A stretch of DNA of 64,000 nt from Verrucomicrobiota bacterium (lineage in GTDB: Bacteria > Verrucomicrobiota > Verrucomicrobiia > Opitutales > Opitutaceae). The notes below the pieces were generated by a model, which was not told the origin of the DNA, searched no databases, and saw only the letters and a list, made by a program, of their open reading frames with translations. Below are positions 14,931-44,432 of this stretch, one piece after another; position 1 is the stretch's first letter; every line of letters starts with the position of its first letter. The position numbers were made by a program, and so were the translations under genes. The stretch spans positions 7,134 through 71,133 of the forward strand of contig JANNDM010000013.1 in assembly GCA_031387725.1 (NCBI GenBank), written 5' to 3'.

Positions 14931-15121
14931 GAGTGATCGTCAGCTTGAATCTCCCGGCGACGCAAGACCGTGGATCGGCCGCACGACCGGCCATTCACGC
15001 GGAGTTCCAGGGGAACCCCGGTCGGCGGACACCCCGGGCCTCAATCGTTTGTTCGATGGCTCTCCCGTTGCAATGCGGCGGCGCGGTGGCTTCGCTGACC
15101 GCGGCGCAATGCCAGTTTTCC

Positions 15122-18100: not shown

Positions 18101-19213
18101 GGCCACTGGACGTATCCCGCCGGCACGAAGAAGGATGTTTTCGTCGCCTCGAACGCGGCCGAGGTGGAGCTGTTTCTCAACGGCCGCTCGCTCGGCGCCG
18201 GTCAGGTGTCCGACCGCTATCTGTTCACCTTCCCGCAGGTCACGTGGGCGGCCGGGGAGTTGAAGGCCGTGGCGCGCACGGCGGGCCGGGTGGTGGCCGA
18301 GCAAACCAGGCATACCGTCGGCCCGGCGGTGGCGCTGCGGCTGACAGCCCGGACCGGACCGGAAGGGTGGCAGGCCGACGGCGCAGACGTGGCCTTGATC
18401 GATGTCGAGGCGGTTGACGCCCAGGGCGACCGTTGTCCGACCTTCCAGCAACGCGTGGATTTCTTTTTCACCGACCCCGGCACCTGGCGCGGCGGCTATA
18501 ACAGCGGCAAAATCGATTCGATCAACAACCCCTGGCTCGACCTTGAAGCCGGCATCAACCGCGTCATGGTCCGGGCCGGCCGCGGGCCGGGCATTTTCAC
18601 GGTCACGGCGACGAGCGGCGGCCTCCGCAGCGGCAGCCTCAGCCTAGCGGCGCGGGAATTCACCGGAGACCAGCCCGCCATGCCCCGGCCCGGTTTGCCG
18701 GCGCAAGCGCCCGCCCGCACCGTTCCCGCCCGGCCTGCCCCCGCCGCCCAGGCCGCCGGCCCGGCCATGCTCGGGCAGTTCATCCAGACCCTCAACTACA
18801 CCGCGCCGAATGCGGCCATCGTCCACGTCGAGCGCGACGCCCGCGACGGCCGGAATGCCTACGTGAACATCGACTCACCGTTCACCGCGCTGCCCGGCGC
18901 CCTCGTCGGGGCCGACTGGGTGCAGGCCGATAACCGCGACGCCCTCTACAGCGCCGTCGACCTGATGGAGCTGGCCGTCACCGGCCCCACGGTCGTCTGG
19001 ATCGCCCACGACAACCGCCTGGCCCGGCCCGCGTGGCTCACGCAGCAGTTCGAGGCGGTGAAGATGACCATCAGCGTGGCCGGGCAGAAAATGGATATCT
19101 TTCGCCGGTTCACCCGGGACAATGAAAGCCTCACGCTCGGCGCGAACACGGAGAACACCAACCTCACCGAGGGCGCGATGTATCTGGTGTTCGTGAACAC
19201 CGCGGCGCGCTAG
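15122..19213 (+). CDS. Fusion: alginate lyase family (PF05426, PL38-like) + GH2 glycosidase with C-terminal accessory domains
   Basis: N-terminal SEGDYWWPDP, RMNPDLQFAQ, GRGIGIIDT, NNHGTCW, ELARTKP; then VNFNADWRF, FEAVRQVAEVYLNG, GGFTPFGFDLT, NNPSIFIWEGGN, VHIIGHWTYP, RTFQQ-like PTFQQRVDF. Start uncertain (ORF open from 14933). Confidence 0.85.
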   Translation: MLFFPDFDLAAHERPRVVHIAEAALGTEPRALTSARNPRSAGGAHDFSSEGDYWWPDPANPNGPYIRKDGLTNPDNFTAHRQLMFGLAREVGALAAAYDLTGEERFAAAALRHLRRWFIEPATRMNPDLQFAQSIQGVSKGRGIGIIDTLHLAEVALAIEVLRGSALLTAADDTALTAWFRDYLHWMRTHPNGIEEMKADNNHGTCWVLQVACFARLTRDEAVLAECRQRLREVLLPGQMAPDGGFPRELARTKPYAYSIFNLDVMSALAVVLSTPDDNLMARALPDGRSLVKGVEFLAPFLADKSKWTKPPDVMYWADWPVRQPALLFGALASGNESWLKLWQRLPADSAIEEIQRNFPVRFPTLWLRHLRPSTRPARVTVNFNADWRFTKSDPAGAPAPGFDDAPWATVSAPHTFNDTDTFDNWSLPGHRGEQEQWSGRTWYRKTFTAPAAWAGKKVFIEFEAVRQVAEVYLNGQLLGTAKGGFTPFGFDLTPHLKIGAPNVLAVMADNRFMKDPLDPSIAQQAATTAATHPNLSQLSKQLMEQIPATLEELQADQIPWNNPHWHPAHGGIYRNVRLIITDALHLTLPLYSFLQTEGPYAYATEVTEKSAKIGLEIPVRNERSSAADAEITAELFDANDKLVAALKFTESIAAGETKKIGTSIVIPQPRLWEPAYPHLYRVVLSLNVRNTNIDRVEIPLGIRSIWWDAQAGLFVNGAHLKLQGWGQKPTNEWPGLGAAQPDWMHYYTAQLMRDAGGNFIRWGHVPGGPAQIIAGDRLGIIALQPGGDGEHDTVGGAWALRVADFRDLLIYYRNNPSIFIWEGGNQKVTRDHAAELRGLMDRYDPHGGRAFAFRRADAITAEFMDVGIGTEGGREIARLPVVEGEYNREESPRRVWDDFSPPNFGYPEGKGQTYQLTSEQFAANQAGHYVKKLGAESHAGGANWIFSDSTSGGRVATEVARASGEVDGVRLPKEAYYVVAAMFRDDPQVHIIGHWTYPAGTKKDVFVASNAAEVELFLNGRSLGAGQVSDRYLFTFPQVTWAAGELKAVARTAGRVVAEQTRHTVGPAVALRLTARTGPEGWQADGADVALIDVEAVDAQGDRCPTFQQRVDFFFTDPGTWRGGYNSGKIDSINNPWLDLEAGINRVMVRAGRGPGIFTVTATSGGLRSGSLSLAAREFTGDQPAMPRPGLPAQAPARTVPARPAPAAQAAGPAMLGQFIQTLNYTAPNAAIVHVERDARDGRNAYVNIDSPFTALPGALVGADWVQADNRDALYSAVDLMELAVTGPTVVWIAHDNRLARPAWLTQQFEAVKMTISVAGQKMDIFRRFTRDNESLTLGANTENTNLTEGAMYLVFVNTAAR

Positions 19214-20274
19214 CGGGGCGGAGCGGGCAGGAAGCCGAGCGAGCGCAACCAGGTCTGCGCAAGCTGCGGCCAGTCCGAGGTCGGGCCGAGATCTTTCCGC
19301 ACGCCGAAACCGTGCGGGCCCTTTTCGAAGAGGTGCATCTCCACCGGGATCCCGGCATTGCGCGCGGCGGTGTAGAAGGCCAGGCTGTTTTCCACCGGCA
19401 CCGATTTGTCCTCGGCGGTGTGCACGAGGAAAACGGGCGAGGTATCCTTGGTCACGTGCCGATCAGGTGAGAGCTGGGCGAGCAAAGCGGGTGAGGCATG
19501 GCCCTGCACCAGATTATTTCGCGAGCCCTCGTGCACGTGCGGGCCCTCCATCAGCATGACCGGATATTGCAGGATGAGGAAATCGGGCCGGGCGCTGACG
19601 GTGTCGAGTGCCGCGCCGGTCCGGCCATCGGGATGGTCGTAGAGCGTTCCGGCGCAGGCGGCGAGGTGTCCGCCGGCCGAGGAGCCGACGACACCGATGC
19701 GGTGCGGATCGCCCCCGAACTCGGCGGCGCGTGAGCGCACGAGCCGCACGGCGCGGAGCACATCGCGCAACGGGGCGGGGTGTCCGTATTCCTTGAGCCG
19801 GTATTTAAGGATGAAGACCGAGACACCCGCGGCGTTCAGCCACTTGGCGTGGCCGTTGCCCTCGTTGCTGATGGCGAGCCGGGTGTAGCCGCCGCCGGGA
19901 CAGAGGATGGCCAGGGTGCCGTTCGCCTTGTCCGCCGGAGCGGGCAGGTAGGTCAGCGTGGGGATCTGGACGTTGTAGACGCGGTCGTCCTGAATGTATT
20001 CCGCGCCGCCATCCGGCTGCGCGTCGGGCACGCCTTCGGGCCAAAGGGGAATGACCAAGGGCTCGGCACAGTGAGCGGCCGTGAATAACAGGCAGGTCCA
20101 GAGACAGGTCGTGGTTTTGGTCCGACACCCCGGAGCTAGTCGCCGACCGTGAGCGGAGTCGAACGGCTCCGGCTTGGTTGAGGTGTAGCCACGAGCGTGA
20201 GCGAGTGGACGAGACTCCACTCGCTCACGCTCGTGGCTACTTTGGAGAGCAAGGAAGGGGTGATGCTTGGACAT
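19210..20274 (-). CDS. Alpha/beta hydrolase, carbohydrate esterase (BD-FAE-like)
   Basis: PLWPEGVP, CPGGGY, GSSAGGH nucleophile motif, HTAEDKSV, GPHGFG. N-terminus contains a translated palindrome. Confidence 0.85.
   Translation of the reverse strand: MSKHHPFLALQSSHERERVESRPLAHARGYTSTKPEPFDSAHGRRLAPGCRTKTTTCLWTCLLFTAAHCAEPLVIPLWPEGVPDAQPDGGAEYIQDDRVYNVQIPTLTYLPAPADKANGTLAILCPGGGYTRLAISNEGNGHAKWLNAAGVSVFILKYRLKEYGHPAPLRDVLRAVRLVRSRAAEFGGDPHRIGVVGSSAGGHLAACAGTLYDHPDGRTGAALDTVSARPDFLILQYPVMLMEGPHVHEGSRNNLVQGHASPALLAQLSPDRHVTKDTSPVFLVHTAEDKSVPVENSLAFYTAARNAGIPVEMHLFEKGPHGFGVRKDLGPTSDWPQLAQTWLRSLGFLPAPPR
20130..20240. repeat. Composite REP-like palindromes
   Basis: Perfect 25-bp inverted repeat GTAGCCACGAGCGTGAGCGAGTGGA (20185-20209) / 20216-20240 with a 6-nt loop, starting with GTAG. 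Adjacent CCGGAGC..GCTCCGG element (20130-20172) encloses CCGTGAGCGGAGTCGAACGG. Confidence 0.8.
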
Positions 20275-20303
20275 GACGGGTTTATCAAATGCCCCGGGGA
20301 TGT

Positions 20304-21593
20304 TTATTTGGGGCCCGGTGTTGCGCCCGGATCATCCACCCGGCGGATTTCGCCGCCGAGCAGGAACAACGAACCGATGGCAACCGGCACGAGCAGCGCC
20401 GCCATGACGAAGACGGGGGTGTAGCTGATCTGGCTGAGCACGGGCACGAGCCAGGTGCTGAAGACGAGAACGCCGGCCACGGCGCCCATGCCGCCGATGC
20501 CGGCGACCGTGCCGACCAGGGGTCCGGCAAAGTAATCACTGGGCAGCGTCTGGATGTTGTTGATCGCCACCTGGAATCCCATGAGCACCACGGCGATGGA
20601 CAGCACGGCGACCAGTGGGCTGCCCGCGGTCACGGCGCCGATGAAACCGGGCACGGTCAGCGCACCGCCGATCAGGATGGCGCGTTTCCGAGCGCGGTCG
20701 ACCGTCCAGCCTTGGCGCAACAGATGCCCGGAATACCAGCCGCCGGCCAAGCTGCCGATGGCGGCGCCGAGGTAGGGCACCCAGCCGAAGAGCCCGATCT
20801 GCTTCACGTCGAAGCCGAAGCGCTCGGTGAGATAGATCGGCAGCCAGTTGACGAAGAGCCACCACACCGGATCGAGGAAGAAACGGGAGACGATGATCGC
20901 CCAGGTCTGGCGCAGACGGAGTGCGGCCGTCCAGGTCAGGGTCGGGGCGGCGGTGGCCGGAGCAGATGCGGTCGCGTCGCCGCCGAGGATGTGGGTGCGC
21001 TCCTCCGGTGAAATCCACGGATGTTTCTCGGGTCCGGCCCGGGCGAGAATCCACCACGGCACGATCCAGATCAGGCCGAGCCCGCCGACCGCCACAAACG
21101 TTGCGCGCCAGCCGAAAAGCAGAAACAACCAGGCAATCAACGGCGCCGATACCACCGCACCAAGTGAGGCGCCGGCGTTGAAAATGCCCTGGGCGAAAGC
21201 ACGCTCATGGCGCGGAAACCACTCGGCCACGGCCTTAGTGGCGCCGGGCCAGTTGCCGGCTTCAGCCAGGCCCAGCAGGCCGCGAAACGCGCCGAGACTC
21301 AGGGCCGAGCGGGCCGCGCCATGCAGGGCACAGGCGATCGACCAGGCCACAATCGAGGCCACAAAGCCGAGACGCGTGCCGACGCGGTCAAAAAACCGGC
21401 CGGAGATCGCCTGGCCCAGCGCATAGCAGACCATGAAAACGGAGACGATGGAGGCGTAGGCATCCTTCGAGAGGCCGGTGTCCTTGGTGATCGCCGGCCA
21501 CATGACCGCGAGCGACGTGCGGTCGACGTAGTTGATGACGGTGGCGACCGCGATGAGGCCGATGATCCACCAGCGGATATGCGAGCGCATCAT
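20304..21593 (-). CDS. MFS hexuronate transporter (ExuT-like)
   Basis: IRWWIIGLIAVATVINYVDRT, EAGNWPGATKAVAEWFP, RFFLDPVWW. Confidence 0.88.
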   Translation of the reverse strand: MMRSHIRWWIIGLIAVATVINYVDRTSLAVMWPAITKDTGLSKDAYASIVSVFMVCYALGQAISGRFFDRVGTRLGFVASIVAWSIACALHGAARSALSLGAFRGLLGLAEAGNWPGATKAVAEWFPRHERAFAQGIFNAGASLGAVVSAPLIAWLFLLFGWRATFVAVGGLGLIWIVPWWILARAGPEKHPWISPEERTHILGGDATASAPATAAPTLTWTAALRLRQTWAIIVSRFFLDPVWWLFVNWLPIYLTERFGFDVKQIGLFGWVPYLGAAIGSLAGGWYSGHLLRQGWTVDRARKRAILIGGALTVPGFIGAVTAGSPLVAVLSIAVVLMGFQVAINNIQTLPSDYFAGPLVGTVAGIGGMGAVAGVLVFSTWLVPVLSQISYTPVFVMAALLVPVAIGSLFLLGGEIRRVDDPGATPGPK

Positions 21594-21598
21594 GACGG

Positions 21599-23776
21599 TC
21601 AGTTTTTGCGCAGGGCGGCGGGGCCGTCCCAGGTGAAGTCGCCTGCGGCGGTCGCGACGGTGTGCGGGCCCGCGGGTTTGTCCCGATTGGAGATCAGCAG
21701 CGTCCAGTCGAGTCCGTTGGCGCCTTGCAGACGGACGACCGTGCCGTCGTCGGTGGCGGCCAGCACCTCGACCGAGCGGAATACCGCGGCGCCGCCGGCG
21801 GTGACTTCACGCGTGGCATCCCAGCGGCCGTGCGGTTCAATGACGGTGGCGAAGACATGATTCGCCGCGTTGACGCGCTGGATGACGGCGGTCTCGGGGC
21901 GGAGATTGAACTTGGGGTCGTTGGCGCCTACGCGCGTGTAGTAGATCTTTCCGCCGGGTGCAGTGGCGGAGACGGCGGTATAGAAACGGTCGCCGTTCAA
22001 CCACGTGAAGCTGAGCGGGCCTTTGGCGTCGGCCTCGGCCTCGACCCAGAGGTGCTGGTAGCCGTGCTTGTCGCCGAGCGGGCGGCGCGAGTTCGTGTGT
22101 GCGGTGTATTCGGTGTTTCCGGCGAGGAAATGCCCCGCGTAATGGAGCGGATAATCGTATTGATGCGGTTTCTCCGCCACGAGGCGGAAGACATCGACCA
22201 GCACCGGGTGGGCGAGCTTGGGATCGCGGATCATCGCCACGGTGCGCTGCATCGCCACGCCGGGATAGGCCGTCGTGTCGCGGGCGCTCATCACCTGGAA
22301 ATCGGGATCGGTGGCGGTGAAGTAGTGCCGGTCGGAATGGCTGGCATCGGCGGTGTCGTAATCGCCGGCGTAGTTCGAGCGGCCGTCCACCGTCACGGTG
22401 TTGTGGGCGATGGTCTGGAGGGCATAGGATTTGTTTTCGGGCAGATAGCGGCCGCCGAATTTCTGCTCGATGTTGAGAAAGCGGGCCGCGCCGTAGTCGG
22501 GGAGGATTTCACGGCCGTTGTCGGAGTAGAGCAGCGCGAGCTTGTCGTAGTGGCCGTGCTCCATGCCGAAGGCGGTGTATTTCAGCAAGGCGAGCGGGCG
22601 GCCGGAGTCGGACTCGGCGCGCAGGATGCCGATCCCGCCGTGGTCACCCGCGGGGCCGTCGCGGAATTCCACACTGGCGTAGGGGAAGGGCGGGGGCGCA
22701 GGCGTGGCGGCGAGCGCCGCCGCGGTTTGCAGCCCGGCGGAGGTGAGTGAGACGGTGTTCTGGCGCTGCGCGACGGAGAGCAGGCGCGCGTCGCTGCCGT
22801 AACGGGCGAAGACCAGGTTGAGTTGGAAGGCGACCTCGGGCGAGAGATAGGTCTTTTCCTTGAGCGAGTCATTGATGGGAAGGAACTCACCGTTGACGTA
22901 GGTCTGCTGGAGGAGCGCGTAAAAGGCCTTGCGCAGCAGCGCGTCGCGGTAGGCGTAGATTTTCAAATCGGGCTGGTTGCGCTCCACCACCTCGGCGAAG
23001 AGGAAAAAGGGCCAGAGCGCATAGCGGGCATAATAGGGGCCCTCGAGATAGTAGCCGTCGGGGGAGAAGAGGAGGTCCATCTGGCGCAGGAAACCCGCGG
23101 TGCCATCGCGCTTGGAGCCGCGCAGGGCCTTGTCGACGTGCTCGGTGTCGCCCAGGAGGTAGCCGGCGAGGCCGACGGCGGTGGCGGTCCAGGTGCCGTG
23201 GTTGTGGATACGATCAAACTCGTCGAGGCGCTCCTCGCAGAGGTAGTGCATCATCGGGCGGTAGAGGTTTTTCTCCAGCACCGCGTGTTCCTCCGCCGGG
23301 ATGGCGTCGTAGACGCAGTCGTAGGCCAGGGAGACGTGCACGAGCCACACCGCCTCATTGAGGCTCTGCCAGAAAATGCGCCCGGCCGACTGCTTGTTGG
23401 CGGCGGGGTGGCGGCCAAGGGTGGGGTAGAGCACGGCGTAGCGGTGCAGGTGTTCGCGCACGAAATCGGCGTAACGCTTTTCCCCGGTCAGCTGGTAGAA
23501 AAACCCGGCCAGCTGCATCTCGGTGTAGTTCTGCTTGTGGCGCTCGTGGGTGTAACCCGCAGCGTCCTTAGGCGGCGGCACATCGATGGGCGCGGCGAGG
23601 GCCTGGTCGACTTTCTTGCGCGCCTCGGCCAGGGCGGCGTCGAAGAGCGGGTAGCGGCCCGAGGCGGCGCGCATGGCCGCGAAGTCGTCGGCGTTGTAGA
23701 GGAGGTGCGGATGGGATTTCGCCCCGAGCGTAATGGCCGCAAAAGCTGCGCAGAGGAGGATGGTGAGCGCACGCAT
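21599..23776 (-). CDS. Oligoalginate lyase, PL17-like (alginate lyase N-domain + heparinase II/III domain)
   Basis: Signal peptide; YTHERHKQNY, GRIFWQSLNE, IHNHGTW, YYLEGPYYARY, HGHYDKL, QTIAHNTVTVD. Confidence 0.85.
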   Translation of the reverse strand: MRALTILLCAAFAAITLGAKSHPHLLYNADDFAAMRAASGRYPLFDAALAEARKKVDQALAAPIDVPPPKDAAGYTHERHKQNYTEMQLAGFFYQLTGEKRYADFVREHLHRYAVLYPTLGRHPAANKQSAGRIFWQSLNEAVWLVHVSLAYDCVYDAIPAEEHAVLEKNLYRPMMHYLCEERLDEFDRIHNHGTWTATAVGLAGYLLGDTEHVDKALRGSKRDGTAGFLRQMDLLFSPDGYYLEGPYYARYALWPFFLFAEVVERNQPDLKIYAYRDALLRKAFYALLQQTYVNGEFLPINDSLKEKTYLSPEVAFQLNLVFARYGSDARLLSVAQRQNTVSLTSAGLQTAAALAATPAPPPFPYASVEFRDGPAGDHGGIGILRAESDSGRPLALLKYTAFGMEHGHYDKLALLYSDNGREILPDYGAARFLNIEQKFGGRYLPENKSYALQTIAHNTVTVDGRSNYAGDYDTADASHSDRHYFTATDPDFQVMSARDTTAYPGVAMQRTVAMIRDPKLAHPVLVDVFRLVAEKPHQYDYPLHYAGHFLAGNTEYTAHTNSRRPLGDKHGYQHLWVEAEADAKGPLSFTWLNGDRFYTAVSATAPGGKIYYTRVGANDPKFNLRPETAVIQRVNAANHVFATVIEPHGRWDATREVTAGGAAVFRSVEVLAATDDGTVVRLQGANGLDWTLLISNRDKPAGPHTVATAAGDFTWDGPAALRKN

Positions 23777-23779
23777 GAC

Positions 23780-24535
23780 TCAGTTGAAAAAAGCGCCGCC
23801 GTTGATCTCGACGGCTTCGCCATTGATGAACGAGGCGCGGCCCGAGGCGAGATAGGCGACGAGGTCGGCGACCTCCGCCGCCTGGCCCTCGCGTCCCAGG
23901 GGGGTCGCACCGGCGACCCGTTGCCGGATCTCGGGTTTGGTGTGCGTGTCGTGGAAAGCGGTCGCGATCATGCCGGGGTTGACCGCGTTGACCCGGATGC
24001 GGCGGGGGGCAAGTTCCTTGGCGAGGGAGCGGGTGAAATTGAGCACGCCGGCCTTGGCTGCGGCATAGGCACTGGCGCCACCACCACCGCCATCGCGGGC
24101 GGCCTGCGAGGCGAGGTTCACGATGGCGCTGCCGTCGGGCATGGCGGGCAGCACGGCCTTGGTCACCAAGAACACGGTCTTGAGATTCAGGGCCATGACT
24201 TGGTCCCAGAACGCCTCGTCCATGTCGGCCACGGTCTTCCGGGCGACGATGCCCCCGGCGTTGTTGACCAGGATGTCGATCGCGCCCCCGAAGGCCGCCC
24301 GGGTCTCCGCCACCATGCGGGCAATGTCAGCGGCCCTGAGCACATCACCTTGCACGGCGATGGCCCGGCCGCCGGCGGCCGCGATGAGGCGCAGGGTCTC
24401 GTCGGCCTCGGCGCGATTGCTGCGATAATTGACGGCCACCCGGGCCCCGAGGGCGGCGAGGCGGAGCGAGATGGCGCGCCCGATGTCACGGGAACCGCCG
24501 GTGACCAGGGCAACTTTGGCATGCAAGTCAGTCAT
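23780..24535 (-). CDS. SDR oxidoreductase, probable DEH (4-deoxy-L-erythro-5-hexoseulose uronate) reductase
   Basis: KVALVTGGSRDIG, LVNNAGG, YAAAK; immediately upstream of the PL17-like lyase. Substrate inferred from context. Confidence 0.8.
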   Translation of the reverse strand: MTDLHAKVALVTGGSRDIGRAISLRLAALGARVAVNYRSNRAEADETLRLIAAAGGRAIAVQGDVLRAADIARMVAETRAAFGGAIDILVNNAGGIVARKTVADMDEAFWDQVMALNLKTVFLVTKAVLPAMPDGSAIVNLASQAARDGGGGGASAYAAAKAGVLNFTRSLAKELAPRRIRVNAVNPGMIATAFHDTHTKPEIRQRVAGATPLGREGQAAEVADLVAYLASGRASFINGEAVEINGGAFFN

Positions 24536-24601
24536 GGGAGGGGGAGGGGGAGAACAGGGACGAGACAGCCTGCGCCCGGCCAGCGGGGGAGGCAAGGCTA
24601 T

Positions 24602-24634
24602 ATTCCATAGGTGAACTAATAGTTCATATATGAA
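24602..24634. promoter_or_regulatory. Candidate IclR operator(s) upstream of SDR-PL17-MFS-esterase operon
   Basis: AT-rich patch with perfect palindrome TTCATATATGAA (24623-24634), overlapping TGAACTA-A-TAGTTCA and TTCCATAGGTGAA. Confidence 0.6.
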
Positions 24635-24688
24635 TATCGGCTTACCGCGGGCGCCCCGGGCGCAGCGTCGGAGGGGCGCCGGCGGCAC

Positions 24689-24712
24689 TTACCGCACCAC
24701 CCGGGCGCCGCC
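24689..24712 (-). other. Duplicate of the last codons of kdgK (GGARVVR*)
   Basis: GGC GGC GCC CGG GTG GTG CGG TAA versus the kdgK end GGC GGC GCC CGA GTG GTC CGT TGA, 91 nt away. Confidence 0.6.
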
Positions 24713-24723
24713 CCTTCGACCGG

Positions 24724-24753
24724 CTTCCGCCTCCGCCAAGGCTATGGCGGACA
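24724..24753 (+). repeat. Short palindromic repeat, second copy at 40249-40278
   Basis: CTTCCGCCTCCGCCAAGGCTATGGCGGACA versus reverse complement of 40249-40278, CTTCCGCCGTCGCCAAGGCTATGGCGGACA. Confidence 0.75.
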
Positions 24754-24779
24754 GGCAGGGCGGCGCGAATCTGACGAGA

Positions 24780-25874
<1,095 letters not shown>

Positions 25875-25950: not shown

Positions 25951-26589
25951 CTACGCCGCAGGCGAAGCGGCGGCGACGAATTGCCGGGCGCGGGCGGTGA
26001 TGGCGGGCCAGTCTTTCGCTTTCAGCGCGGCGGGCGATACGAGCGCGCTGCCGGCGGCGGTGGCGAAGGCGCCGTTCTTCAGGAACTCGGCGACGGTTTC
26101 GGGCGTGACGCCGCCGGTCGGCATGACCTGAATGTTGGGGAACGGGGCCTTGACGGACTTGATGTAGGCGGGGCCGAAGAACTCCGCGGGGAAAATCTTC
26201 ACGACATCGACGCCGAGTTCCCACGACGTGTAAACCTCTGTCGGGGTGAGCGCGCCGCCCAGGACGGCGACGCCCAGTTCCCGGCACGCGGCGATGACGG
26301 TCGGGCGCACGGCGGGCGTGACGATGAACTTCGCGCCGGCGGCAATGCCTTGCCGCGCGGTGTCGGCGTCGAGCACGGTGCCGAGGCCGAGGAGAATCTG
26401 GGGGAGCTCCCGCGTGACCTGCGCGCACAACTCGAGGGCGCCGGGCGTCGTCATGGTGAGTTCGAGGCAGTTCAGGCCGCCGGCGGAGAGGGCGCGGGCG
26501 CAGTCGACCAGGCTGTCCGGGCCGTCGGCCCGGATGAGCGCGATGACTTTCTCGGCTTTGATTTTGGCGAGGACTTCGGTCTTGGTCAT
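25951..26589 (-). CDS. eda: KDPG/KHG aldolase
   Basis: Start MTKTEVL; LELTMTTPGA, GLGTVLD, GALTPTE, VKIFPA, MPTGGV. Confidence 0.9.
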   Translation of the reverse strand: MTKTEVLAKIKAEKVIALIRADGPDSLVDCARALSAGGLNCLELTMTTPGALELCAQVTRELPQILLGLGTVLDADTARQGIAAGAKFIVTPAVRPTVIAACRELGVAVLGGALTPTEVYTSWELGVDVVKIFPAEFFGPAYIKSVKAPFPNIQVMPTGGVTPETVAEFLKNGAFATAAGSALVSPAALKAKDWPAITARARQFVAAASPAA

Positions 26590-26596
26590 GGGAAAA

Positions 26597-27892
26597 TTAT
26601 TCGCCTCCCGCCCACTTGGGCTTGGTGCGGAGATGATAAAGGCGTTCGCCGGCCTTCGGTTCGTAGAAGATGCCCTCGGCCTCCCGGTTCGCGTAGTCGT
26701 CCGGGCTGATGGTGCGCCAGTCGCGATAACCGAGGTTGATCTTCCGACAGGTGGCCTCGGGGATGCCGGTGGCAAGGGTCACGCGCACGCGCGGCGTCTC
26801 GATGCCGGCCTGCTCGTCGTAGGTGCCGATGCCGTGGACGTGGGTGGAATGGGCGAGGGTGCCCCAGGGCTCGTGCTGGTATTTGTCCCACTGCTTGAGG
26901 AAAAACTGCACGCAGTGGTAGCCGATGCGCTCGATCATCGCGCCGTGGACCAGCGAGATCTCATGGATGTGCGGGGCATAGATGATGAGTTCGCCGCCGT
27001 CGGCGACAATGGGCTCGAGCTTATACATGCACTTCCCGCCGACCCAGAGCTCGTCATACATTTTCGGCGCGCAGGAGAGCACGGTATGGAAGGGCCGGTC
27101 CTTGTAGGTGATGTGGAGTTCGCGGGAAAGTTCGCTCGCGTCGTCCCAGGCCTGTTCGGGGGTGCCGGCAAAGAGGCCGGCCAGCTCGCCCTGGCCGTGG
27201 ACGACCAGGCAGAAGCAGAGCTTGGGCACCGTGACCATCGCGCCGGCGCGGTCGACGACCTTGCGCACGGGCGTCCACTTGTTGCCGATGATCATCGGGT
27301 TGGTGACGACGGCGCCGAGCCAGTGGAAGAAATTCAGGATGCCCGGGCCGGCCACGCCGGGGAACAGGTATTTGTTGCCGCCGGAGAAGCCGACGACCTC
27401 GTGGGGAAAGACCGGGCCGCAGAGGATGATCTGGTCGTAGTCGAAGAGACGCCGGTTGATGTGCACCGGCACATCCATGGCAAAGAGACCGCCGGAGAGG
27501 TCCTTGATGTCCGCCGCCGGGATGTTCCCCAGGTCGCGGAGCGCGGCGGGATTGTCCCACTCGTGATTGATGAACGCGACGTCCTTGTAGGTGGTGGTGC
27601 GCTCGGCGGCGGTGATCTCGACGCGACGGTTGATGGCCTCCTCCGTCATCGCGGGGTGCGTGCCGAGGGCGAGCAGGACATCGAATTTCTTGGTCACGCC
27701 CGCGAGCCGGGCAAAGAGAGTCTTGAACATCAGCCCGACCGGCGCGGTGCGGGTCGCGTCGGGGATGATGAGCACGATGCGTTTGCCCCGGTAATTTTCC
27801 GCCGGGCACGCGGCGGCGACCAACGCGCGGACCTGGTCGGCGTCGAGGGAGCGGCCGGCAGGGGCGAGGGAGCGATGCGGGGCGTTGGCCAT
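26597..27892 (-). CDS. Lactate racemase (LarA) family nickel-pincer racemase/epimerase homolog
   Basis: IIPDATRT, ALGTHP, PHEVVGFSGGNKYLFPG, FFHW, GGK match the LarA motif series; substrate unknown. Confidence 0.82.
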   Translation of the reverse strand: MANAPHRSLAPAGRSLDADQVRALVAAACPAENYRGKRIVLIIPDATRTAPVGLMFKTLFARLAGVTKKFDVLLALGTHPAMTEEAINRRVEITAAERTTTYKDVAFINHEWDNPAALRDLGNIPAADIKDLSGGLFAMDVPVHINRRLFDYDQIILCGPVFPHEVVGFSGGNKYLFPGVAGPGILNFFHWLGAVVTNPMIIGNKWTPVRKVVDRAGAMVTVPKLCFCLVVHGQGELAGLFAGTPEQAWDDASELSRELHITYKDRPFHTVLSCAPKMYDELWVGGKCMYKLEPIVADGGELIIYAPHIHEISLVHGAMIERIGYHCVQFFLKQWDKYQHEPWGTLAHSTHVHGIGTYDEQAGIETPRVRVTLATGIPEATCRKINLGYRDWRTISPDDYANREAEGIFYEPKAGERLYHLRTKPKWAGGE

Positions 27893-27907: not shown

Positions 27908-28786
27908 TCAGCGGTGCGCGGGGGTATAGCCCAACAGGCGCGACAGCTCGGCGGCGGCCGCCTGGACCTTGCCGGCCATCTCGGGGATCCGCTCCCTGGT
28001 GAAGCGGACGGTGGAGGCGGTGATGCCGATCGCCGCGGTCACATTGCCGTCAGAGGCGTAGACGGGAGCAGCCAGACAACGGATGCCCGGCGCAAATTCC
28101 TCATCATCGAGGCTGTAGCCGCGCTTGCGGGTCAACTCGGCCTCGCGCTTGATTTGGGCGAGGGTGGTGTGGGTGCGAGGGGTCCGCGCCGTCGCGCGTT
28201 GGGGATAGATCTCGGCGATGCGCTGGCGGTGGACGAAGGCGAGGAACGATTTGCCGGTGGAAGAACAGTGCAGTTCGGCCAAAAAACCGGGCCGGGAGGC
28301 GGCGCGCAGCGGGTGGGGGCTGTCCTGCACGGCCACGATCAGGGAACGGTCATCACAAGGGATCGCCAGGTGGGAGGTCTCGTCCGTCTGGGCGGTGAGG
28401 TTTTCCAAAACCGGCAGGGCCATGGCCCGGATCTCGGTGCCGGCGAGGGAGGCGTTGCCGAGGGAGATCAGCACCGGGCCGAGTTCATAACGGTTCTCCA
28501 TCTTGCGCGCCAAACCCTCCAATTGCAGGGTGGCCATGATGCGGAGGGTCGTGGTGACGGGGATGTGCAGCTCGCGACTGATTTCGGCGGCTTTGTAACC
28601 ATCTGGTTGGCGGCCCAGCAACTTGAGGATCCGGCAGGCGTTGCGGAGATTGGGAATGATGTAGCGCGCCAGCTTGTCCGTCTCGCTCGAGGCAGGCGAC
28701 TGAAGAGGGGGGCGGGCAGGCATGGCGGAAAGCGAAACCGCTTTGCGGGGGACGGCCAAGGGGAAAGCAGGGGGCAAGCGGGGCAT
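27908..28786 (-). CDS. IclR-family transcriptional regulator
   Basis: HTH (IPNLRNACRILKLL..IPVTTTLRIMATL), HCSSTGK, GYSLDDEEF..GIRCLAAPV. Start 28786 or 28723. Confidence 0.9.
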   Translation of the reverse strand: MPRLPPAFPLAVPRKAVSLSAMPARPPLQSPASSETDKLARYIIPNLRNACRILKLLGRQPDGYKAAEISRELHIPVTTTLRIMATLQLEGLARKMENRYELGPVLISLGNASLAGTEIRAMALPVLENLTAQTDETSHLAIPCDDRSLIVAVQDSPHPLRAASRPGFLAELHCSSTGKSFLAFVHRQRIAEIYPQRATARTPRTHTTLAQIKREAELTRKRGYSLDDEEFAPGIRCLAAPVYASDGNVTAAIGITASTVRFTRERIPEMAGKVQAAAAELSRLLGYTPAHR

Positions 28787-32045: not shown

Positions 32046-32092
32046 CTGGATCAGCAATGTTGCCTCACCCTCGGACCAGCTTGCCCCCTGAA

Positions 32093-32923
32093 ATGCAAAT
32101 CCCCGAAACCAGTTATTCCCGCACCGCCGCGACCCTGCCGACCGAGGCGCTCCGGGCGGAGTTTCTCGTCAGCGGACTGTTCGCCCTTGGGGCCGCGAAT
32201 TTCCGCTACTGGGAAACAGATCGCACCATCGTGGGCGGCATCACACCCGGGGCTTCCGCGCTGGACCTGCCCAACCCCGCCGAAGTGCGCAGCGGATTTT
32301 TCCTGGAGCGGCGGGAAGCCGGCGTGATCAACCTCGGCGGCCCGGGCAGCGTCACGGTGGACGGCACGGTTCATGCCCTGGAGCCGCTCGATGCGCTCTA
32401 CCTCGGGCGCGGCACCAAGGCGGTCACGTTTGCCTCGCGCTCGGCCGGGCAGCCGGCGCGGTTCTATTTCCTGTCCTATCCCGCGCACACCGCCTACCCG
32501 GGGCGGCACCTTGCGTTCAAGGACGCGAAGGGCGAACGGCTGGGGGTGCGCGAGTCAGCCAACGAGCGCACGCTCTACAAACTCATCCACCCCGGCGCTT
32601 TTCCCACCTGCCAGTTGGTGATGGGCTTTACCCGCATGGAACCGGGCAGTGTCTGGAACACAATGCCGCCGCACACCCACCTCCGGCGCTCCGAGGTCTA
32701 CTGCTATTTCAACGTGCCGCCGGCTGCCGCCGTGTTTCATTTCATGGGCGCGCCGACGGCTACCCGCCACCTTGTGGTGCGCGACCTCGAGGCCGTCCTC
32801 TCCCCGCCGTGGTCCATCCACTGCGGCGTCGGCACAGCCGCCTACGCCTTCGTCTGGGGCATGGGCGGCGAAAATCAGGAATTCGCCGACATGGATCCTG
32901 CACCGGTCGCGCAGCTCCGATGA
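32093..32923 (+). CDS. kduI: 5-keto-4-deoxyuronate isomerase
   Basis: DRTIVGG, FLERREAGVINLGG, CQLVMGFT, WNTMPPHTHLRRSEVY, SPPWSIHCGVGT. Start 32093 or 32057. Confidence 0.93.
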   Translation: MQIPETSYSRTAATLPTEALRAEFLVSGLFALGAANFRYWETDRTIVGGITPGASALDLPNPAEVRSGFFLERREAGVINLGGPGSVTVDGTVHALEPLDALYLGRGTKAVTFASRSAGQPARFYFLSYPAHTAYPGRHLAFKDAKGERLGVRESANERTLYKLIHPGAFPTCQLVMGFTRMEPGSVWNTMPPHTHLRRSEVYCYFNVPPAAAVFHFMGAPTATRHLVVRDLEAVLSPPWSIHCGVGTAAYAFVWGMGGENQEFADMDPAPVAQLR

Positions 32924-32941
32924 ATCTCCGCGTCGAAAAGG

Positions 32942-33005
32942 GTAGGGCGCACCGGCCCGGTGCGCCGCGCGTCTCGGATCGGCGGACCGGGCCGGTCCGC
33001 CCTAC
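32942..33005. repeat. GTAG-type REP doublet (REPIN-like) between kduI and kduD
   Basis: GTAGGGCGCACCGGCCCGGTGCGCC (32942-32966) and inverted copy GTAGGGCGGACCGGCCCGGTCCGCC (reverse complement of 32981-33005); each is internally palindromic. Confidence 0.8.
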
Positions 33006-33017
33006 CTGCTGATCCCC

Positions 33018-33785
33018 ATGTCCAACATCCTCGACAGCTTTCGCCTCGACGGGAAAGCAGCCATTGTCACCGGCGCCTCGCGCGGCCTGGGGGCCGCCAT
33101 GGCGCAGGCCTTGGCCGAGGCCGGCGCCGACCTCGTGCTCGTGGCGCGCGGCGACATGGGCGCCCTGCAAAAAACCATCGCGGCCACCGGCCGGCGGAGC
33201 GTGGTCGTCGCCGCCGATGTCGGCACCCCCGCCGCTGCGGCGAAGATCGTGGCCGCCGCCTATGAGAATTTCGGCCGCGCCGACATCCTCGTCAACAACG
33301 CCGGCATCATCCGCCGCGCCCCCTTGCAGGAGTTTTCCGAGGCGGATTGGAACGACGTCCTCAACGTCAACCTCACCGGCGCGTTCCGCCTCAGCCAGCG
33401 CTTCGCCGCCGAGCTGGTCACGCGCAAGTCGCCGGGCAAGATCATCAACATCGCCTCGATGCTCTCATTCCAGGGCGGCATCCGGGTCGTTTCCTACACG
33501 GCCGCCAAAAGCGCACTGGCCGGCGTCACCCGGGCCATGGCCAACGAGCTCGCGAGCCAGGGGATCAACGTTAACGCCATTGCCCCGGGCTACATGGCCA
33601 CGGACAACACGGCCGCCTTGCAAGCCGACGCCGCCCGCAACAAGTCCATCCTCGAGCGCATCCCCGCCGGCCGCTGGGGCACGCCGGCCGATCTGGCGGG
33701 AGCCGCAATCTTCCTTGCCGCCCCGGCGTCAGACTACATGCACGGCCACATCCTCGCGGTCGATGGCGGCTGGCTCGTGCGCTGA
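33018..33785 (+). CDS. kduD: 2-deoxy-D-gluconate 3-dehydrogenase
   Basis: IVTGASRGLG, NIASMLSFQGGIRVVSYTAAKS, ERIPAGRWG; follows kduI. Confidence 0.9.
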   Translation: MSNILDSFRLDGKAAIVTGASRGLGAAMAQALAEAGADLVLVARGDMGALQKTIAATGRRSVVVAADVGTPAAAAKIVAAAYENFGRADILVNNAGIIRRAPLQEFSEADWNDVLNVNLTGAFRLSQRFAAELVTRKSPGKIINIASMLSFQGGIRVVSYTAAKSALAGVTRAMANELASQGINVNAIAPGYMATDNTAALQADAARNKSILERIPAGRWGTPADLAGAAIFLAAPASDYMHGHILAVDGGWLVR

Positions 33786-33949: not shown

Positions 33950-35152
33950 ATGAAAGCACTCCTCCTCTTTCTCGCCTCGGCGCTCGCCGCCGTCGCCGCC
34001 CCTCGCCTGACGGTCACGGTGACGCACGACCTCGAGACCGCCCGACCGGCCGAGACCATCACCGTGCCGTGGCTGGAGGTTAACAAGGCGCTGCCGGGTG
34101 CGCTGCTGCAGCGCCTCGCCGTCCACGATGCCAAGGGCAACCTGCTGCCCTATCAGGTCACCAACATCGCCCCGCAGGCCAAGGATCCGCAGGGCGTCGG
34201 CCTGGCCTACGGCGAGCTCATCTTCCAGCACGATTTCGCCGCCAGCGAGAAATCCGCCGCATTCACGGTCGAAAAATCCGACACGGTGGCGCCGGTTTTT
34301 CCCGTCAAGGCCTATGCGCGCTTCGTGCCGGAGCGGCTCGAGGATTTCGCGTGGGAGAATGACAAGATCGGCCACCGCACCTACGGCCCCGCGCTCGCCG
34401 CCCCGGCCGGGCCGGGCCCGGCCAAGGAGGTGCTGGTGACCAGCGGCCTCGATGTCTGGTGCAAGCGCGTCAGTTACCCCATCGTCGACCGGTGGTATAA
34501 CAAGGGGCACGATCATTACCACAAGGACGAGGGCGAGGGGATGGATATGTATTCCGTGCAGACCAGTCGCGGCTGCGGCGGCACCGGCATTTGGGACGGC
34601 CGGCAACTGCACGTCAGCCACAATTACCAGAACTGGCGGGTGCTGGCGAACGGCCCCATCCGCGCGGTCTTCGAACTCACTTACGATACTTGGTCGGCGA
34701 ACGGGGTCTTCGTCTCCGAGGTCAAGCGCTTTACCGTCGATGCCGGCCACAACCTCGACCAGATCGAGAGCACCTTCACCGCCGCCGGCAACGTGAAGGA
34801 GCTCACCATCGGCATCGGCCTCAACAAAACCCCCGCCGACAAGGGTCAGGAGCCGCAGATCGCGCTCACGCCCGTCGCGGCGGACGGCTCCTTCACCCAG
34901 TGGATCGTGCAGCAGACCAACGGCGCGCTCGGCACCGGCGTCATCGTGCCCGACAACTTCACCGGATTTGCCGAGGACGAGCGCAACCACCTGTTGCTGG
35001 CCAAGGTCGTGTCCGGCCAGCCGCTCCGCTATTTCGCCGGGGCCGGCTGGTCCAAGGCCGGCGAGTTCACGACCCGCGAGAGCTGGAATGACTACGTCGC
35101 CGCCTTTTCTGCCCGGCTGAAATCACCGCTCAAGGTTGTTCTGACCCCATGA
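33950..35152 (+). CDS. DUF4861 family secreted protein
   Basis: Start MKALLLFL at 33950; RFVPERLEDFAWENDKIGHRTYG, DVWCKR, DEGEGMDMYSV, RGCGG, GPIRAVFELTY. Confidence 0.75.
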   Translation: MKALLLFLASALAAVAAPRLTVTVTHDLETARPAETITVPWLEVNKALPGALLQRLAVHDAKGNLLPYQVTNIAPQAKDPQGVGLAYGELIFQHDFAASEKSAAFTVEKSDTVAPVFPVKAYARFVPERLEDFAWENDKIGHRTYGPALAAPAGPGPAKEVLVTSGLDVWCKRVSYPIVDRWYNKGHDHYHKDEGEGMDMYSVQTSRGCGGTGIWDGRQLHVSHNYQNWRVLANGPIRAVFELTYDTWSANGVFVSEVKRFTVDAGHNLDQIESTFTAAGNVKELTIGIGLNKTPADKGQEPQIALTPVAADGSFTQWIVQQTNGALGTGVIVPDNFTGFAEDERNHLLLAKVVSGQPLRYFAGAGWSKAGEFTTRESWNDYVAAFSARLKSPLKVVLTP

Positions 35153-37716
35153 TCTCGTTCCGTTTCACGTTTCTGGCCGGCCTGCTACTGGCTTCCGCTG
35201 CGGCCCAGTCCCCGGTGGCAAAATTCGACGGCGCCACGCCGCTTGAGTGGTCGCGCCGTCTGGCCGACTCCGAGATAAAGCGTCTCGGCATCTCGCTCGA
35301 AGCCAGCGCTTCCAATCCTCGCGCGCGCTGGGATTATTCACCCGGGGTGTTCGCCCTTGGGCTCGTGCGTCTCGGGGAAGCGACCGGCAACGACGCCTAC
35401 ATCCAGTTCGGCACGCGGGCCGTTGCTTCCCATGTCAACGCCGACGGCACGATCCAGGGTTACAAGGAGGAAGACTACAACATCGACAACATCCCGCCGG
35501 GCAAGGTGCTCCTTGCCGCCCTGGCCCGCGGGGAAAAGAACCCGGCTTATACGAAGGCGGCACAGTCCCTCCGCGCGCAAATGGCCACGCACCCGCGCAC
35601 CAGCGAGGGCGGCTTCTGGCACAAGCGGCGTTACCCGCACCAGATGTGGCTCGACGGTCTCTACATGGCCTCGCCCTACCTCGCGCAATACGGCGGCCTG
35701 TTCAAGGAACCGGCGCTCTTCGACGACGTGGCGAAGCAGATCATTCTGATGGACCGCCACAGTTATGATCCCGCCACGGGCCTCTTCTGGCACGCTTGGG
35801 ACGAGTCCCACGCGCAGAGTTGGGCCGACCCCCAGACCGGCTTCTCCCCCAATTTCTGGAGCCGCGCCATCGGCTGGTATGGCATGGCGATCGTGGACAC
35901 GCTTGATTTTCTCCCCGTCAACCAGCCGGAGATCGACGAGATCGTGAACATCCTCAGGCGCCTCGCCGACGGCGTGGTGCAGTGGCAGGACCCGGCTTCC
36001 GGCGTCTGGTGGCAGATTCCCAACCTCGGCCGCAAGGAAGGCAACTACCTCGAGGGTTCCGGCTCCGCGATGTTCGTCTACACCCTCGCGAAGGGCGTCA
36101 ACAAGGGCTACCTGCCGCGCGAGAAATACCTGCCCGCCATCCTGAAAGGTTACGCCGGCCTGATCCACACGCTCGTCAAGACCGACGCCAACGGTGCCGT
36201 CCGTCTCACGCAAATCTGTCAGGGTGCCGGGCTCGGCTACATGATGGTCGATGGCAAGACGCCGCGCGACGGCTCCTTTAAGTATTACATCTCCGAGCCC
36301 ATCGTGGACAACGATCCCAAGGGCACCGGCCCGTTCATCCTGGCCGGGATTGAAGTCGAAAAACTACTGTCGACCACCAGCCAGCCGCTGGTCGTGCGCG
36401 GCTGGGACTCGTTGCCGACTGTGCTGGCGCTGATCAAGGCGCCGGAGTTCGCGGCCCGTGATTTCCCTATCACCGATTTTGGCGCGAAGCCCGGTTCTGA
36501 TTGCACCGGCGCCATTGCCGCCGCGATCGAGGCCTGCACCAAGGCCGGAGGCGGCCGCGTCGTCGTGCCGGCGGGTGAATGGTTGACCGGCGCCATCCGA
36601 CTCAAGAGCAACGTCAACCTGCACGTCAGCGAGGGCGCCACGCTGCGCTGGGTCTTCGACCCGGCGAAGTATCCCGTGGTGTTCACGCGCTGGGAAGGCG
36701 TCGAGTGCATGAATTATTCCGCCTTTATCTACGCCTATGGGGAGGAAAACATCGCCGTCACCGGCACCGGCACGCTCGACGGCGGCGCCGACTGGGACAC
36801 GTGGTGGAGCTGGAACGACAAGTCAAAGGAGGGACCCGTGAGACAGAAACCCGCCCGCGACCGTCTGATCGAAATGGGCGAAAAGAACGTGCCGGTGACG
36901 GAGCGGGTCTTCGGCGAGGGTGGCTTCCTGCGGCCGAACTTCATCCAGCCTTACAAGTGCACAAACATTTTGATCGAGGGCGTGACCATCCTCCGCTCCC
37001 CGATGTGGGAAATCCACCCGGTCCTGTCCTCGAACATCACCGTCCGCGGCGTGCAGATCAATTCCCACGGTCCGAACAATGACGGTTTCGACCCCGAGTC
37101 CTGCCGCGACCTCCTGGTCGAGGACACCATCTTTGACACGGGCGACGACTGCATCGCCATCAAGTCCGGCCGCAATGGCGACGGCCGCCGCGTCAACGCG
37201 CCCACCGAGAACATGGTGATCCGCCGTTGTGTGATGAAGGACGGCCACGGTGGCGTGGTGCTCGGCTCGGAGTGCACCGGCGGCATCCGCAACATCTTCG
37301 TCGAGGACTGCACGATGGACAGCCCCCACCTCGACCGCGCCTTTCGCTTCAAGAACAACGCCGTGCGCGGCGGCGTGCTGGAGAATTTCTTCGCCCGCAA
37401 CGTGCAGATCGGCCGGGTGGGGGAAGCCGTGCTCACCATTGACCTGCTCTACGAGGAGGGCGCGCAGGGCGGGTTCAAGCCGGTCGTCCGCAACATCCAG
37501 CTGGACAACATCACCAGCTCCGCCAGTCCGCGCGTCATGTATGTCCGCGGTTTCGCGGGCGCGGTCATTGATAATATCCGCGTCAGCAATTCCACTTTCA
37601 GCGGCGTGACCGAGACGGAGGTTGTGGAGCATGCCGGGACCATCACGCTGCAACACGTCACCATCACGCCGGCGAAGGCGACCAAGAGCCTGAACACCGT
37701 GCCGGCCACGAAATAG
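35149..37716 (+). CDS. Fusion: GH105 unsaturated (rhamno)galacturonyl hydrolase + GH28 polygalacturonase
   Basis: N: WDYSPG, YNIDNI, GGFWHK..QMWLDGLYM, FWSRAIGW, EGSGSAMF. C: ITDFGA, VFTRWEGVE, NNDGFDPES, GDDCIAIKSG, GHGGVVLGSE. Confidence 0.9.
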   Translation: MISFRFTFLAGLLLASAAAQSPVAKFDGATPLEWSRRLADSEIKRLGISLEASASNPRARWDYSPGVFALGLVRLGEATGNDAYIQFGTRAVASHVNADGTIQGYKEEDYNIDNIPPGKVLLAALARGEKNPAYTKAAQSLRAQMATHPRTSEGGFWHKRRYPHQMWLDGLYMASPYLAQYGGLFKEPALFDDVAKQIILMDRHSYDPATGLFWHAWDESHAQSWADPQTGFSPNFWSRAIGWYGMAIVDTLDFLPVNQPEIDEIVNILRRLADGVVQWQDPASGVWWQIPNLGRKEGNYLEGSGSAMFVYTLAKGVNKGYLPREKYLPAILKGYAGLIHTLVKTDANGAVRLTQICQGAGLGYMMVDGKTPRDGSFKYYISEPIVDNDPKGTGPFILAGIEVEKLLSTTSQPLVVRGWDSLPTVLALIKAPEFAARDFPITDFGAKPGSDCTGAIAAAIEACTKAGGGRVVVPAGEWLTGAIRLKSNVNLHVSEGATLRWVFDPAKYPVVFTRWEGVECMNYSAFIYAYGEENIAVTGTGTLDGGADWDTWWSWNDKSKEGPVRQKPARDRLIEMGEKNVPVTERVFGEGGFLRPNFIQPYKCTNILIEGVTILRSPMWEIHPVLSSNITVRGVQINSHGPNNDGFDPESCRDLLVEDTIFDTGDDCIAIKSGRNGDGRRVNAPTENMVIRRCVMKDGHGGVVLGSECTGGIRNIFVEDCTMDSPHLDRAFRFKNNAVRGGVLENFFARNVQIGRVGEAVLTIDLLYEEGAQGGFKPVVRNIQLDNITSSASPRVMYVRGFAGAVIDNIRVSNSTFSGVTETEVVEHAGTITLQHVTITPAKATKSLNTVPATK

Positions 37717-44206: not shown

Positions 44207-44300
44207 TCAGGAAGCGGGGGCGGCGGGACGTGTGACGCGAAAATGACGGATCGCCAGATGGGACCGCACGGTGCGGAAAGCAAAATACCCGGAGGTGAGC
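44207..44300 (-). pseudogene. Orphan 3' remnant of a DUF6250-like gene
   Basis: Reads LTSGYFAFRTVRSHLAIRHFRVTRPAAPAS* versus intact LRSGYFAFRTVRAHLAIRHFRVGVPTTPAS* (2112-2810). In-frame stop at 44330-44332 and no start codon upstream. Confidence 0.75.
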
Positions 44301-44432
44301 GCATGCTTTGCCGGTTGCGGAGTGTTTTGTCAACGGGGTTGCCGCGAAGCACGACGGCCCGGAGTGGTTCTCGTGACACCAGTGCAATCCGGATTGGCCT
44401 TCAGCGTCATCCCGGCCATCTTACCGCTCCGT

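Follow-up and report, generated by a model that had tools for sequence, protein, structure and literature searches.

How can an enzyme of the LarA type, whose characterised homologs are all treated, in the literature examined, as dependent on nickel-pincer nucleotide (NPN), be of use to a bacterium that lacks the genes for making this cofactor, and what would it do there? The question is raised by larAH, a LarA-homolog gene in a 64,000-nucleotide stretch of DNA (hereafter the window) of contig JANNDM010000013.1, from the assembly GCA_031387725.1 of a Verrucomicrobiota bacterium of the family Opitutaceae. An initial annotation of this DNA had read the gene as a candidate uronate or sugar-acid epimerase embedded in an iclR-eda-kdgK operon. 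The part of that reading which names a LarA-family sugar-acid epimerase gained support here from homology, signature residues, fold and neighbourhood, and the specific substrates it put forward did not. On the evidence of sequence and gene content we propose that the larAH product is a C2 hexonate epimerase, most likely of D-mannonate/D-gluconate, within a pathway of hexuronate breakdown without UxuA, a reading to which we assign a probability of roughly 0.6. As an enzyme function larAH is one more GntE-type epimerase, and we regard it as a further member of a described group because its nearest kin, GntE1 and GntE2, are experimentally shown D-mannonate/D-gluconate 2-epimerases requiring NPN; the novelty lies in the absence of NPN biosynthesis from most hosts of a strongly conserved enzyme that keeps its cofactor ligands intact.

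Assignment of the larAH product to LarA group 19

As references we used labelled sequences that Desguin et al. 2020 (PMC7583248) provide as a supplement. The larAH product was 48% (Trad_0660), 42%, 41% and 40% identical to those of group 19 ('G2E2'), the last being LarAH19/GntE1 of Corynebacterium glutamicum, 35% identical to LarAH20/GntE2 of Thermotoga maritima (TM0442, group 20) and 27% identical to Psta_1048 of group 18. A maximum-likelihood tree united the Opitutaceae orthologs with the references of group 19 in a single clade (SH-aLRT 90), apart from group 18 and from GntE2, which sits on a long branch; the tree placement that the initial annotation had suggested as a check thus put larAH in group 19. 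Judged by sequence and tree, then, its product is a group 19 (GntE1-type) member of the LarA superfamily. The best match among the NCBIfam models was NF052594 (group 18 putative hexonate epimerase), an assignment that we rejected: the protein shares with group 18 the EV loop and the tryptophan in helix alpha-11, but it scored 178.4 bits against a cut-off of 500 and, at the low identity just given, it lies outside the clade.

The Pfam domain Lar_N (PF09861) was recognised in the larAH product at 76.8 bits (cut-off 23.3), and the Pfam model LarA_C gave no match. By sequence (phmmer) the top solved structure was 4NAR, that of GntE2 (E 1.7e-63, residues 36-422). An AlphaFold2 model (predicted local distance difference test, pLDDT, 89.5; predicted template modelling score, pTM, 0.86) submitted to Foldseek also had 4NAR as its top match (template modelling score, TM, 0.80/0.82), and the PDB matches at E<=1e-3 were LarA-family structures in 19 of 19 cases. 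The role proposed for GntE2 is the same, namely the conversion of mannonate to gluconate before GntK in a uxaC/uxaE hexuronate route, but GntE2 belongs to another group and has an ES loop in place of EV. The lactate racemase LarA of Lactiplantibacillus plantarum (PDB 5HUQ) shares the fold (TM ~0.65) at an identity of ~17%, and its pocket has FF and Y-Q where EV and W are found here.

The signature described for group 19 is D R H H E V K H V W T A K G L/I A S T H R/K (PMC7583248), and the 20 corresponding positions of the larAH product, mapped manually, read D R H H E V K H V W V G K G L A S T H H, so that 17 of the 20 are identical; D, R, H, H, the E-V loop, K, H, V, W...K and G-L-A-x-S-T-H are thereby shared with GntE1. 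The three mismatches lie at the equivalents of Q295 (V for T), V297 (G for A) and I362 (H for R/K). Those at Q295 and V297 are nearly invariant in the verrucomicrobial clade, and V209, one of the signature valines, is invariant. A link of group 19 to uronic-acid metabolism had already been noted (Desguin et al. 2020, PMC7583248), and a uronic-acid gene context is a further likeness between larAH and GntE1.

Active site and selective constraints

The equivalents of the catalytic LarA residues D72, H108, H174 and K298 are D45, H79, H164 and K287, and those of the NPN-binding residues R75, K184 and H200 are R48, K174 and H190. They fall in the motifs PDATRT (D45, R48), LGTH (H79), PHEVVGFSGGNK (H164...K174), FFHW (H190) and WVGGK (K287), all of which the initial annotation had listed and all of which were found; they line up with their counterparts in GntE2 (4NAR) and LarA. 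The loop formed by residues 163-174 holds the second catalytic histidine, the 'EV' of the hexonate type, a signature described in PMC7583248, and the lysine equivalent to the NPN tether of LarA.

Orthologs were sought in a sample of 401 genomes of the family, the same set being searched three times. Twelve catalytic, cofactor-binding and signature residues were invariant across 34 orthologs, and the open reading frame (ORF) was intact in 59 of the 59 ortholog-bearing genomes, which represent 12 genera. Median ratios of nonsynonymous to synonymous substitution (dN/dS, Nei-Gojobori method, NG86) were 0.21 in pairs of orthologs from genomes without LarC, 0.19 in mixed pairs and 0.16 in pairs from genomes carrying LarC. 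An adaptive signature in the LarC-less orthologs was not found, only one peripheral column (A380) separating them from the LarC-carrying ones, and the ortholog gene tree requires three or more changes of LarC state.

The proposed hexuronate route and the neighbourhood of larAH

The contig also carries, 0.4-6 kb ahead of the start of the window, gntK, a short-chain dehydrogenase/reductase (SDR) gene of the mannonate-oxidoreductase-like kind, a UxaE-like gene and uxaC. The gluconokinase passes the curated GntK/IdnK cut-off, the best model for the SDR is 'D-mannonate oxidoreductase', and the genome carries gnd and zwf. Queries with Escherichia coli UxuA, UxaA and long-chain UxuB returned no match in the genome at E<=1e-5; for UxuA there was none at E<=1e-3, and an Opitutaceae UxuA query was equally without a match in this genome. 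Some relatives do carry UxuA. Edd was considered and rejected, its sole match (contig C84) being 31% identical and probably IlvD. For the mannonate coming from UxaC, UxaE and the SDR there is no recognisable dehydratase, and its evident outlet is epimerisation to gluconate with onward conversion by GntK and Gnd. The initial annotation had sought the place of the enzyme in a step missing from the alginate and pectin pathways; it would instead fill the place of the absent UxuA.

We infer the substrate, the direction of flux and the use of NPN as follows. UxaC and UxaE would turn galacturonate and glucuronate into fructuronate, which the SDR would then reduce to D-mannonate. The larAH epimerase would convert mannonate to gluconate, in place of the missing UxuA/UxaA, after which gluconate would be phosphorylated by GntK and the product fed by Gnd into the pentose-phosphate pathway. 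GntE and GntK connect the isomerase route to 6-phosphogluconate in the same manner in the scheme proposed for T. maritima, which is backed by GntE assays. larAH would be co-transcribed with the gene of an IclR-type regulator and with eda and kdgK, and the latter two would dispose of the 2-keto-3-deoxygluconate (KDG) made from unsaturated uronates by KduI/KduD and the alginate branch. By homology, the chemistry would be a proton-coupled hydride transfer to the bound NPN, with H79 and H164 as acid and base and with K174, H190 and R48 holding the cofactor.

The close packing of larAH between iclR and eda, pointed out in the initial annotation, was borne out by the coordinates (Table 1). We placed the start of iclR at M75 of a long ORF because of the match to a 270-aa homolog in a relative (L047). 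For the PfkB kinase the top NCBIfam models were those of KDG and 2-keto-3-deoxygalactonate (KDGal) kinase, every one of them below its cut-off. Among 33 other Opitutaceae loci the iclR-larAH pairing was kept in 23 and the arrangement of larAH with eda-kdgK in eight, conservation of the kdgK/eda neighbourhood being a further check suggested in that annotation; the recurrent partners across Verrucomicrobiota are the SDR, uxaE, uxaC and the gluconokinase. In one relative (L043) SDR-uxaE-uxaC is divergent from the ortholog, and in L045/L046 the ortholog adjoins genes for an FGGY kinase, a major facilitator superfamily (MFS) transporter, uxaC, uxaE and the SDR. The closed genome of Opitutus sp. GAS368 has kdgK-eda-larAH-iclR, kduI-kduD and SDR-uxaE inside 12 kb, its kduI-kduD standing next to iclR in the same arrangement as in the window.

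Eighty loci drawn from many orders of Verrucomicrobiota (61-91% identity) were surveyed by tblastn with a query set that contained no alginate gene, and a related SDR lay directly upstream of the ortholog in 44. LarB, LarC and LarE were within 10 kb of the ortholog in none of the 80 loci, and a conserved transporter beside the ortholog was looked for and not found. Verrucomicrobiota as a whole hold at least 596 related loci.

The absence of cofactor genes and other points against the epimerase reading

Several observations weigh against mannonate/gluconate epimerisation by the larAH product. Some of them concern the substrate. Two of the three signature mismatches lie in helix alpha-11, where the larAH product has the motif WVGGK and group 19 has WTAAK/WTGAK, and this helix was assigned to substrate recognition (Desguin et al. 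2020, PMC7583248). The Km of GntE1 for mannonate was 120 mM, and its authors suspected another native substrate (PMC7583248). The operon partners eda and kdgK fit a flux to KDG better than one to 6-phosphogluconate, and four enolase-superfamily paralogs in the genome, 21-26% identical to RspA, could conceal a mannonate dehydratase.

The remaining points concern the cofactor. None of larB, larC and larE scored over the cut-off anywhere in the 3.73-Mb assembly, which is 93.8% complete and has a single Lar_N gene, so their absence from the window, stated in the initial annotation, extends to the whole assembly. LarC was present in 13 of the 59 ortholog carriers, and so absent from 46, and in 65 of the 342 genomes without the ortholog (78 of 401 overall); the presence of ortholog and of LarC are not associated (odds ratio 1.2, Fisher p 0.59, a test with no correction for phylogeny). 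Of the 46 ortholog carriers with genomes of high quality, 36 are without LarC.

Searches of the assembly by tblastn with LarB, LarC and LarE from two genomes of the same family returned nothing at E<=1e-3. Of the control genomes, C. glutamicum scored for LarB and LarC, and T. maritima for LarB, LarC and LarE; because of the latter result T. maritima is taken to make NPN, unlike the host here, and in the possession of LarB and LarC C. glutamicum likewise differs from it. In the genus to which the window belongs, LarC was absent from 20 of the 20 genomes sampled, two of them single-contig, and we therefore rejected the explanation that larBCE had merely been lost in an assembly gap. Among the LarC-less ortholog carriers are two isolates in culture, Oleiharenicola sp. 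Vm1 and Opitutus sp. GAS368 (genome of 4.15 Mb). In the 11 genomes tested for all three proteins LarB and LarE follow LarC, the genes being contiguous where all were found. The initial annotation had named a genome without NPN biosynthesis genes as telling against its proposal, and such a genome is what we found; because of the purifying selection on larAH and the intactness of all its cofactor ligands, an epimerase function is in our view not thereby refuted, and the NPN mechanism in this host is a putative one.

A second LarA-like family and the inheritance of larBCE

A second, canonical LarA-like family (Lar_N and LarA_C; motifs DxTR, GTH, EPHFFAGFSGGPK, NHG and YQGVKG), with an FF loop of the lactate-racemase type and all NPN-binding and catalytic residues kept, was present in 69 of the 401 genomes, 48 of these 69 being without LarC. 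Its gene contexts are heterogeneous; in one genome (G126) it is the last gene of a UxuA-SDR-RraA-like operon. When either LarA-type family is counted, 70 of the 96 carrier genomes have no LarC, and neither LarA-type family is represented in 52 of the 78 genomes that carry LarC. LarA homologs and cofactor pathway thus show independent inheritance in this bacterial family. Published genome surveys stress the reverse case, that of larBCE without larA; discussion of genomes with larA and without larBCE was not found in the papers examined.

In the LarC-carrying genome G014 (contig C4), aldo/keto reductase genes flank larB-larC-larE on both sides (L052:97-933 and L052:4512-5504). Their products have apparent Tat-type (RR) signal peptides and resemble the class of NPN-dependent aldo/keto reductases (NphT) published in 2026. 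The LarC of this genome (L052:2182-3627), compared with a large protein collection, had nearest relatives at most 65% identical, and its named top matches belonged to Acidobacteriota and Methylacidiphilales at ~55% or less; a horizontal gain of larBCE by Opitutaceae is hinted at by these sequence comparisons. None of the named top matches came from GAS368, Oleiharenicola or Lacunisphaera, a result that is uninformative as a check of the absence of LarC.

Weighing the alternatives

The substrates first proposed in the initial annotation would make the enzyme a uronate C5 epimerase, interconverting D-mannuronate/L-guluronate or D-glucuronate/L-iduronate and serving the adjacent alginate and pectin genes. 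A PL17-like lyase, an alginate-lyase-domain fusion and an SDR do adjoin the operon in the window. Moreover, because reduction of L-guluronate yields D-gluconate and that of D-mannuronate yields D-mannonate, C5 of mannuronate/guluronate is the same stereocentre as C2 of mannonate/gluconate, and the same active site could plausibly accept both; uronic or aldaric acids have also been raised as possible native substrates of group 19 (Desguin 2020, PMC7583248). However, the conserved partners of the ortholog are the mannonate-oxidoreductase-like SDR, the recurrent one over the 80 loci, together with uxaE, uxaC and the gluconokinase, and not alginate genes. Of the loci whose flanks were read, the window alone had alginate genes beside the gene. 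The alginate unit is parted from kdgK by a 244-nt AT-rich spacer, and it is a separate unit that is not conserved beside the ortholog in the two relatives read beyond kdgK: L047 lacks it in the stretch downstream of kdgK, and it was not seen in a 20-kb stretch of GAS368 (L058), where the tblastn queries, a set containing no alginate gene, placed nothing further. The chemistry also stands against C5 epimerisation, since the lyase products are unsaturated monomers in which the C5 centre has already been lost, and since in a pyranose uronate O5 is the ring oxygen and leaves no free 2-hydroxyl. We know of no uronate C5 epimerase in the LarA family, and we regard this function as highly improbable. 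The same chemistry directed at another acid, be it 6-phospho-D-mannonate/6-phosphogluconate, altronate/allonate, gulonate/idonate or an aldarate (glucarate/mannarate), would agree with the high Km of GntE1, with the departure of the alpha-11 substrate-region residues from group 19, and with the variety of the nearby kinases (GntK here, FGGY in L045, PfkB in the operon). We nevertheless find it unlikely: the gluconokinase of this genome lies above a curated GntK/IdnK threshold, no aldarate genes were seen, and the paper on Lactobacillus suebicus, in which epimerisation of 6-phospho-D-mannonate/6-phosphogluconate is an orphan activity, named an unrelated candidate gene.

A different kind of explanation holds that in hosts without larBCE the protein is an inactive apo-enzyme, either a relic left behind when the cofactor pathway was recently lost or a protein that serves some purpose other than catalysis, for instance binding a ligand together with the IclR regulator. 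The absence of larBCE speaks for it, and the repeated changes of LarC state on the gene tree fit repeated loss. Against it stand the intact ORFs across the 59 genomes and 12 genera, the dN/dS of LarC-less pairs, and the invariance of catalytic and cofactor residues, with the A380 column alone differing by LarC state. Without the epimerase, furthermore, mannonate would have no recognisable outlet, unless a mannonate dehydratase is among the four enolase-family paralogs. A relic is disfavoured by the purifying selection and by there being no other outlet for mannonate, and we consider an apo-enzyme highly improbable. An active C2 hexonate epimerase has to be reconciled with the missing NPN genes, and we see slightly better than even odds that the larAH enzyme and the second LarA-like family are catalytically active in bacteria unable to make NPN. 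Possible ways are the uptake of NPN, or of a precursor such as P2CMN or P2TMN (the pyridinium-3,5-biscarboxylic and -bisthiocarboxylic acid mononucleotides), from neighbouring producers, NPN then being a shared 'vitamin'; an unrecognised route of NPN biosynthesis; or a two-histidine site that epimerises the sugar acid without NPN. Because two unrelated LarA-type families both keep the NPN ligands, we favour an external or unrecognised supply of the cofactor over a private change of mechanism.

Other features of the window

The window is a polysaccharide-utilisation region with a G+C content of 60-69%, and the names borne by close homologs (Lacunisphaera, Didemnitutus, Opitutaceae) assign it to Opitutaceae. 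On the kdgK side of the operon (Table 1), the AT-rich spacer at 24536-24779 splits kdgK from the SDR-PL17-MFS-esterase unit in a genome of ~66% G+C. It contains a palindrome, TTCATATATGAA ... TTAGTTCACCTATGGAATATAG. The spacer is probably the operator and promoter of that unit; a sigma-70 scan of it gave no match. On the opposite side of the operon are a TonB-dependent receptor gene, kduI, kduD, a DUF4861 gene, a GH88-GH28 fusion, an MFS transporter gene and a pectinesterase gene. The fusion (35149-37716, plus strand) encodes 855 aa, combines GH88 (unsaturated glucuronyl hydrolase) with GH28 (polygalacturonase-like) and has a 4-nt overlap with the DUF4861 gene before it.

A further fusion, of 1426 aa (14933-19213, plus strand), joins an alginate-lyase domain to a full GH2 glycosidase (Glyco_hydro_2_N, GH2, DUF4982 and a C5 domain), a combination that seems unusual. 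The segment 1029-14930 holds genes for two sulfatases, a DUF6250 protein, an NHL-repeat protein, two TonB-dependent receptors, a LuxR-type response regulator and a Reg_prop/Y_Y_Y hybrid sensor kinase, a gene set suggestive of a sulfated polysaccharide as a further target of the region. An ORF of 775 aa (44271-46598, plus strand) has gene-like codon bias (G+C at third codon positions, GC3, 0.84) and is without a Pfam match.

Outside the window, the UxaE-like protein (G000:C114:3269-5242, L144) has 657 aa as called from a TTG start and no NCBIfam match at E<=1e-10; it is 82% identical to the product of an Opitutaceae gene that itself has only a weak match to PF16257. The tagaturonate/fructuronate epimerase of Verrucomicrobiota is poorly covered by curated models.

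Table 1. Features around larAH in the window, followed by examples of the second LarA-like family in other genomes of the sample
Feature	Coordinates	Strand	Remarks
larAH	26597..27892	-	431 aa; LarA superfamily group 19 (GntE1 type), putative D-mannonate/D-gluconate 2-epimerase
Active-site loop P163-H164-E165-V166-V-G-F-S-G-G-N-K174	27371..27406	-	from alignment to 4NAR and 5HUQ
H190 codon	27323..27325	-	equivalent to nickel-ligand His200 of LarA (FFHW)
IclR-family regulator	27908..28723	-	271 aa; Pfam IclR_C and HTH_IclR; stop 15 nt 5' of the larAH ATG
eda, 2-keto-3-deoxy-6-phosphogluconate/2-keto-4-hydroxyglutarate (KDPG/KHG) aldolase	25951..26589	-	Pfam Aldolase; TIGR01182 189 bits, cut-off 156; ATG 7 nt past the larAH stop
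kdgK-like PfkB kinase	24780..25874	-	Pfam PfkB; 76 nt past eda; last gene of the iclR-larAH-eda-kdgK unit
SDR, like 4-deoxy-L-erythro-5-hexoseulose uronate (DEH) reductase	23780..24535	-	in separate unit 19210..24535
PL17-like oligoalginate lyase	21599..23776	-	in separate unit 19210..24535
MFS transporter	20304..21593	-	in separate unit 19210..24535
Esterase	19210..20274	-	in separate unit 19210..24535
kduI and kduD	32057..33785	+	NCBIfam equivalogs above cut-off; would supply KdgK and Eda with KDG derived from unsaturated uronates
Second LarA-like family, G080:C32	L057:7006-8274		
Second LarA-like family, G017:C8	L056:7002-8318		
Second LarA-like family, G126:C1	L055:6950-8332		

Implications

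These results point to a branch of hexuronate catabolism that runs from mannonate to gluconate without UxuA and is widespread in Verrucomicrobiota, a phylum important in polysaccharide turnover. If the enzymes do work in hosts that lack larBCE, NPN must pass from microbe to microbe, or else the family must have a mode of action that is independent of the cofactor or otherwise alternative. In such a scenario the annotation of LarA homologs, and the nickel dependence inferred from genomes, would change.

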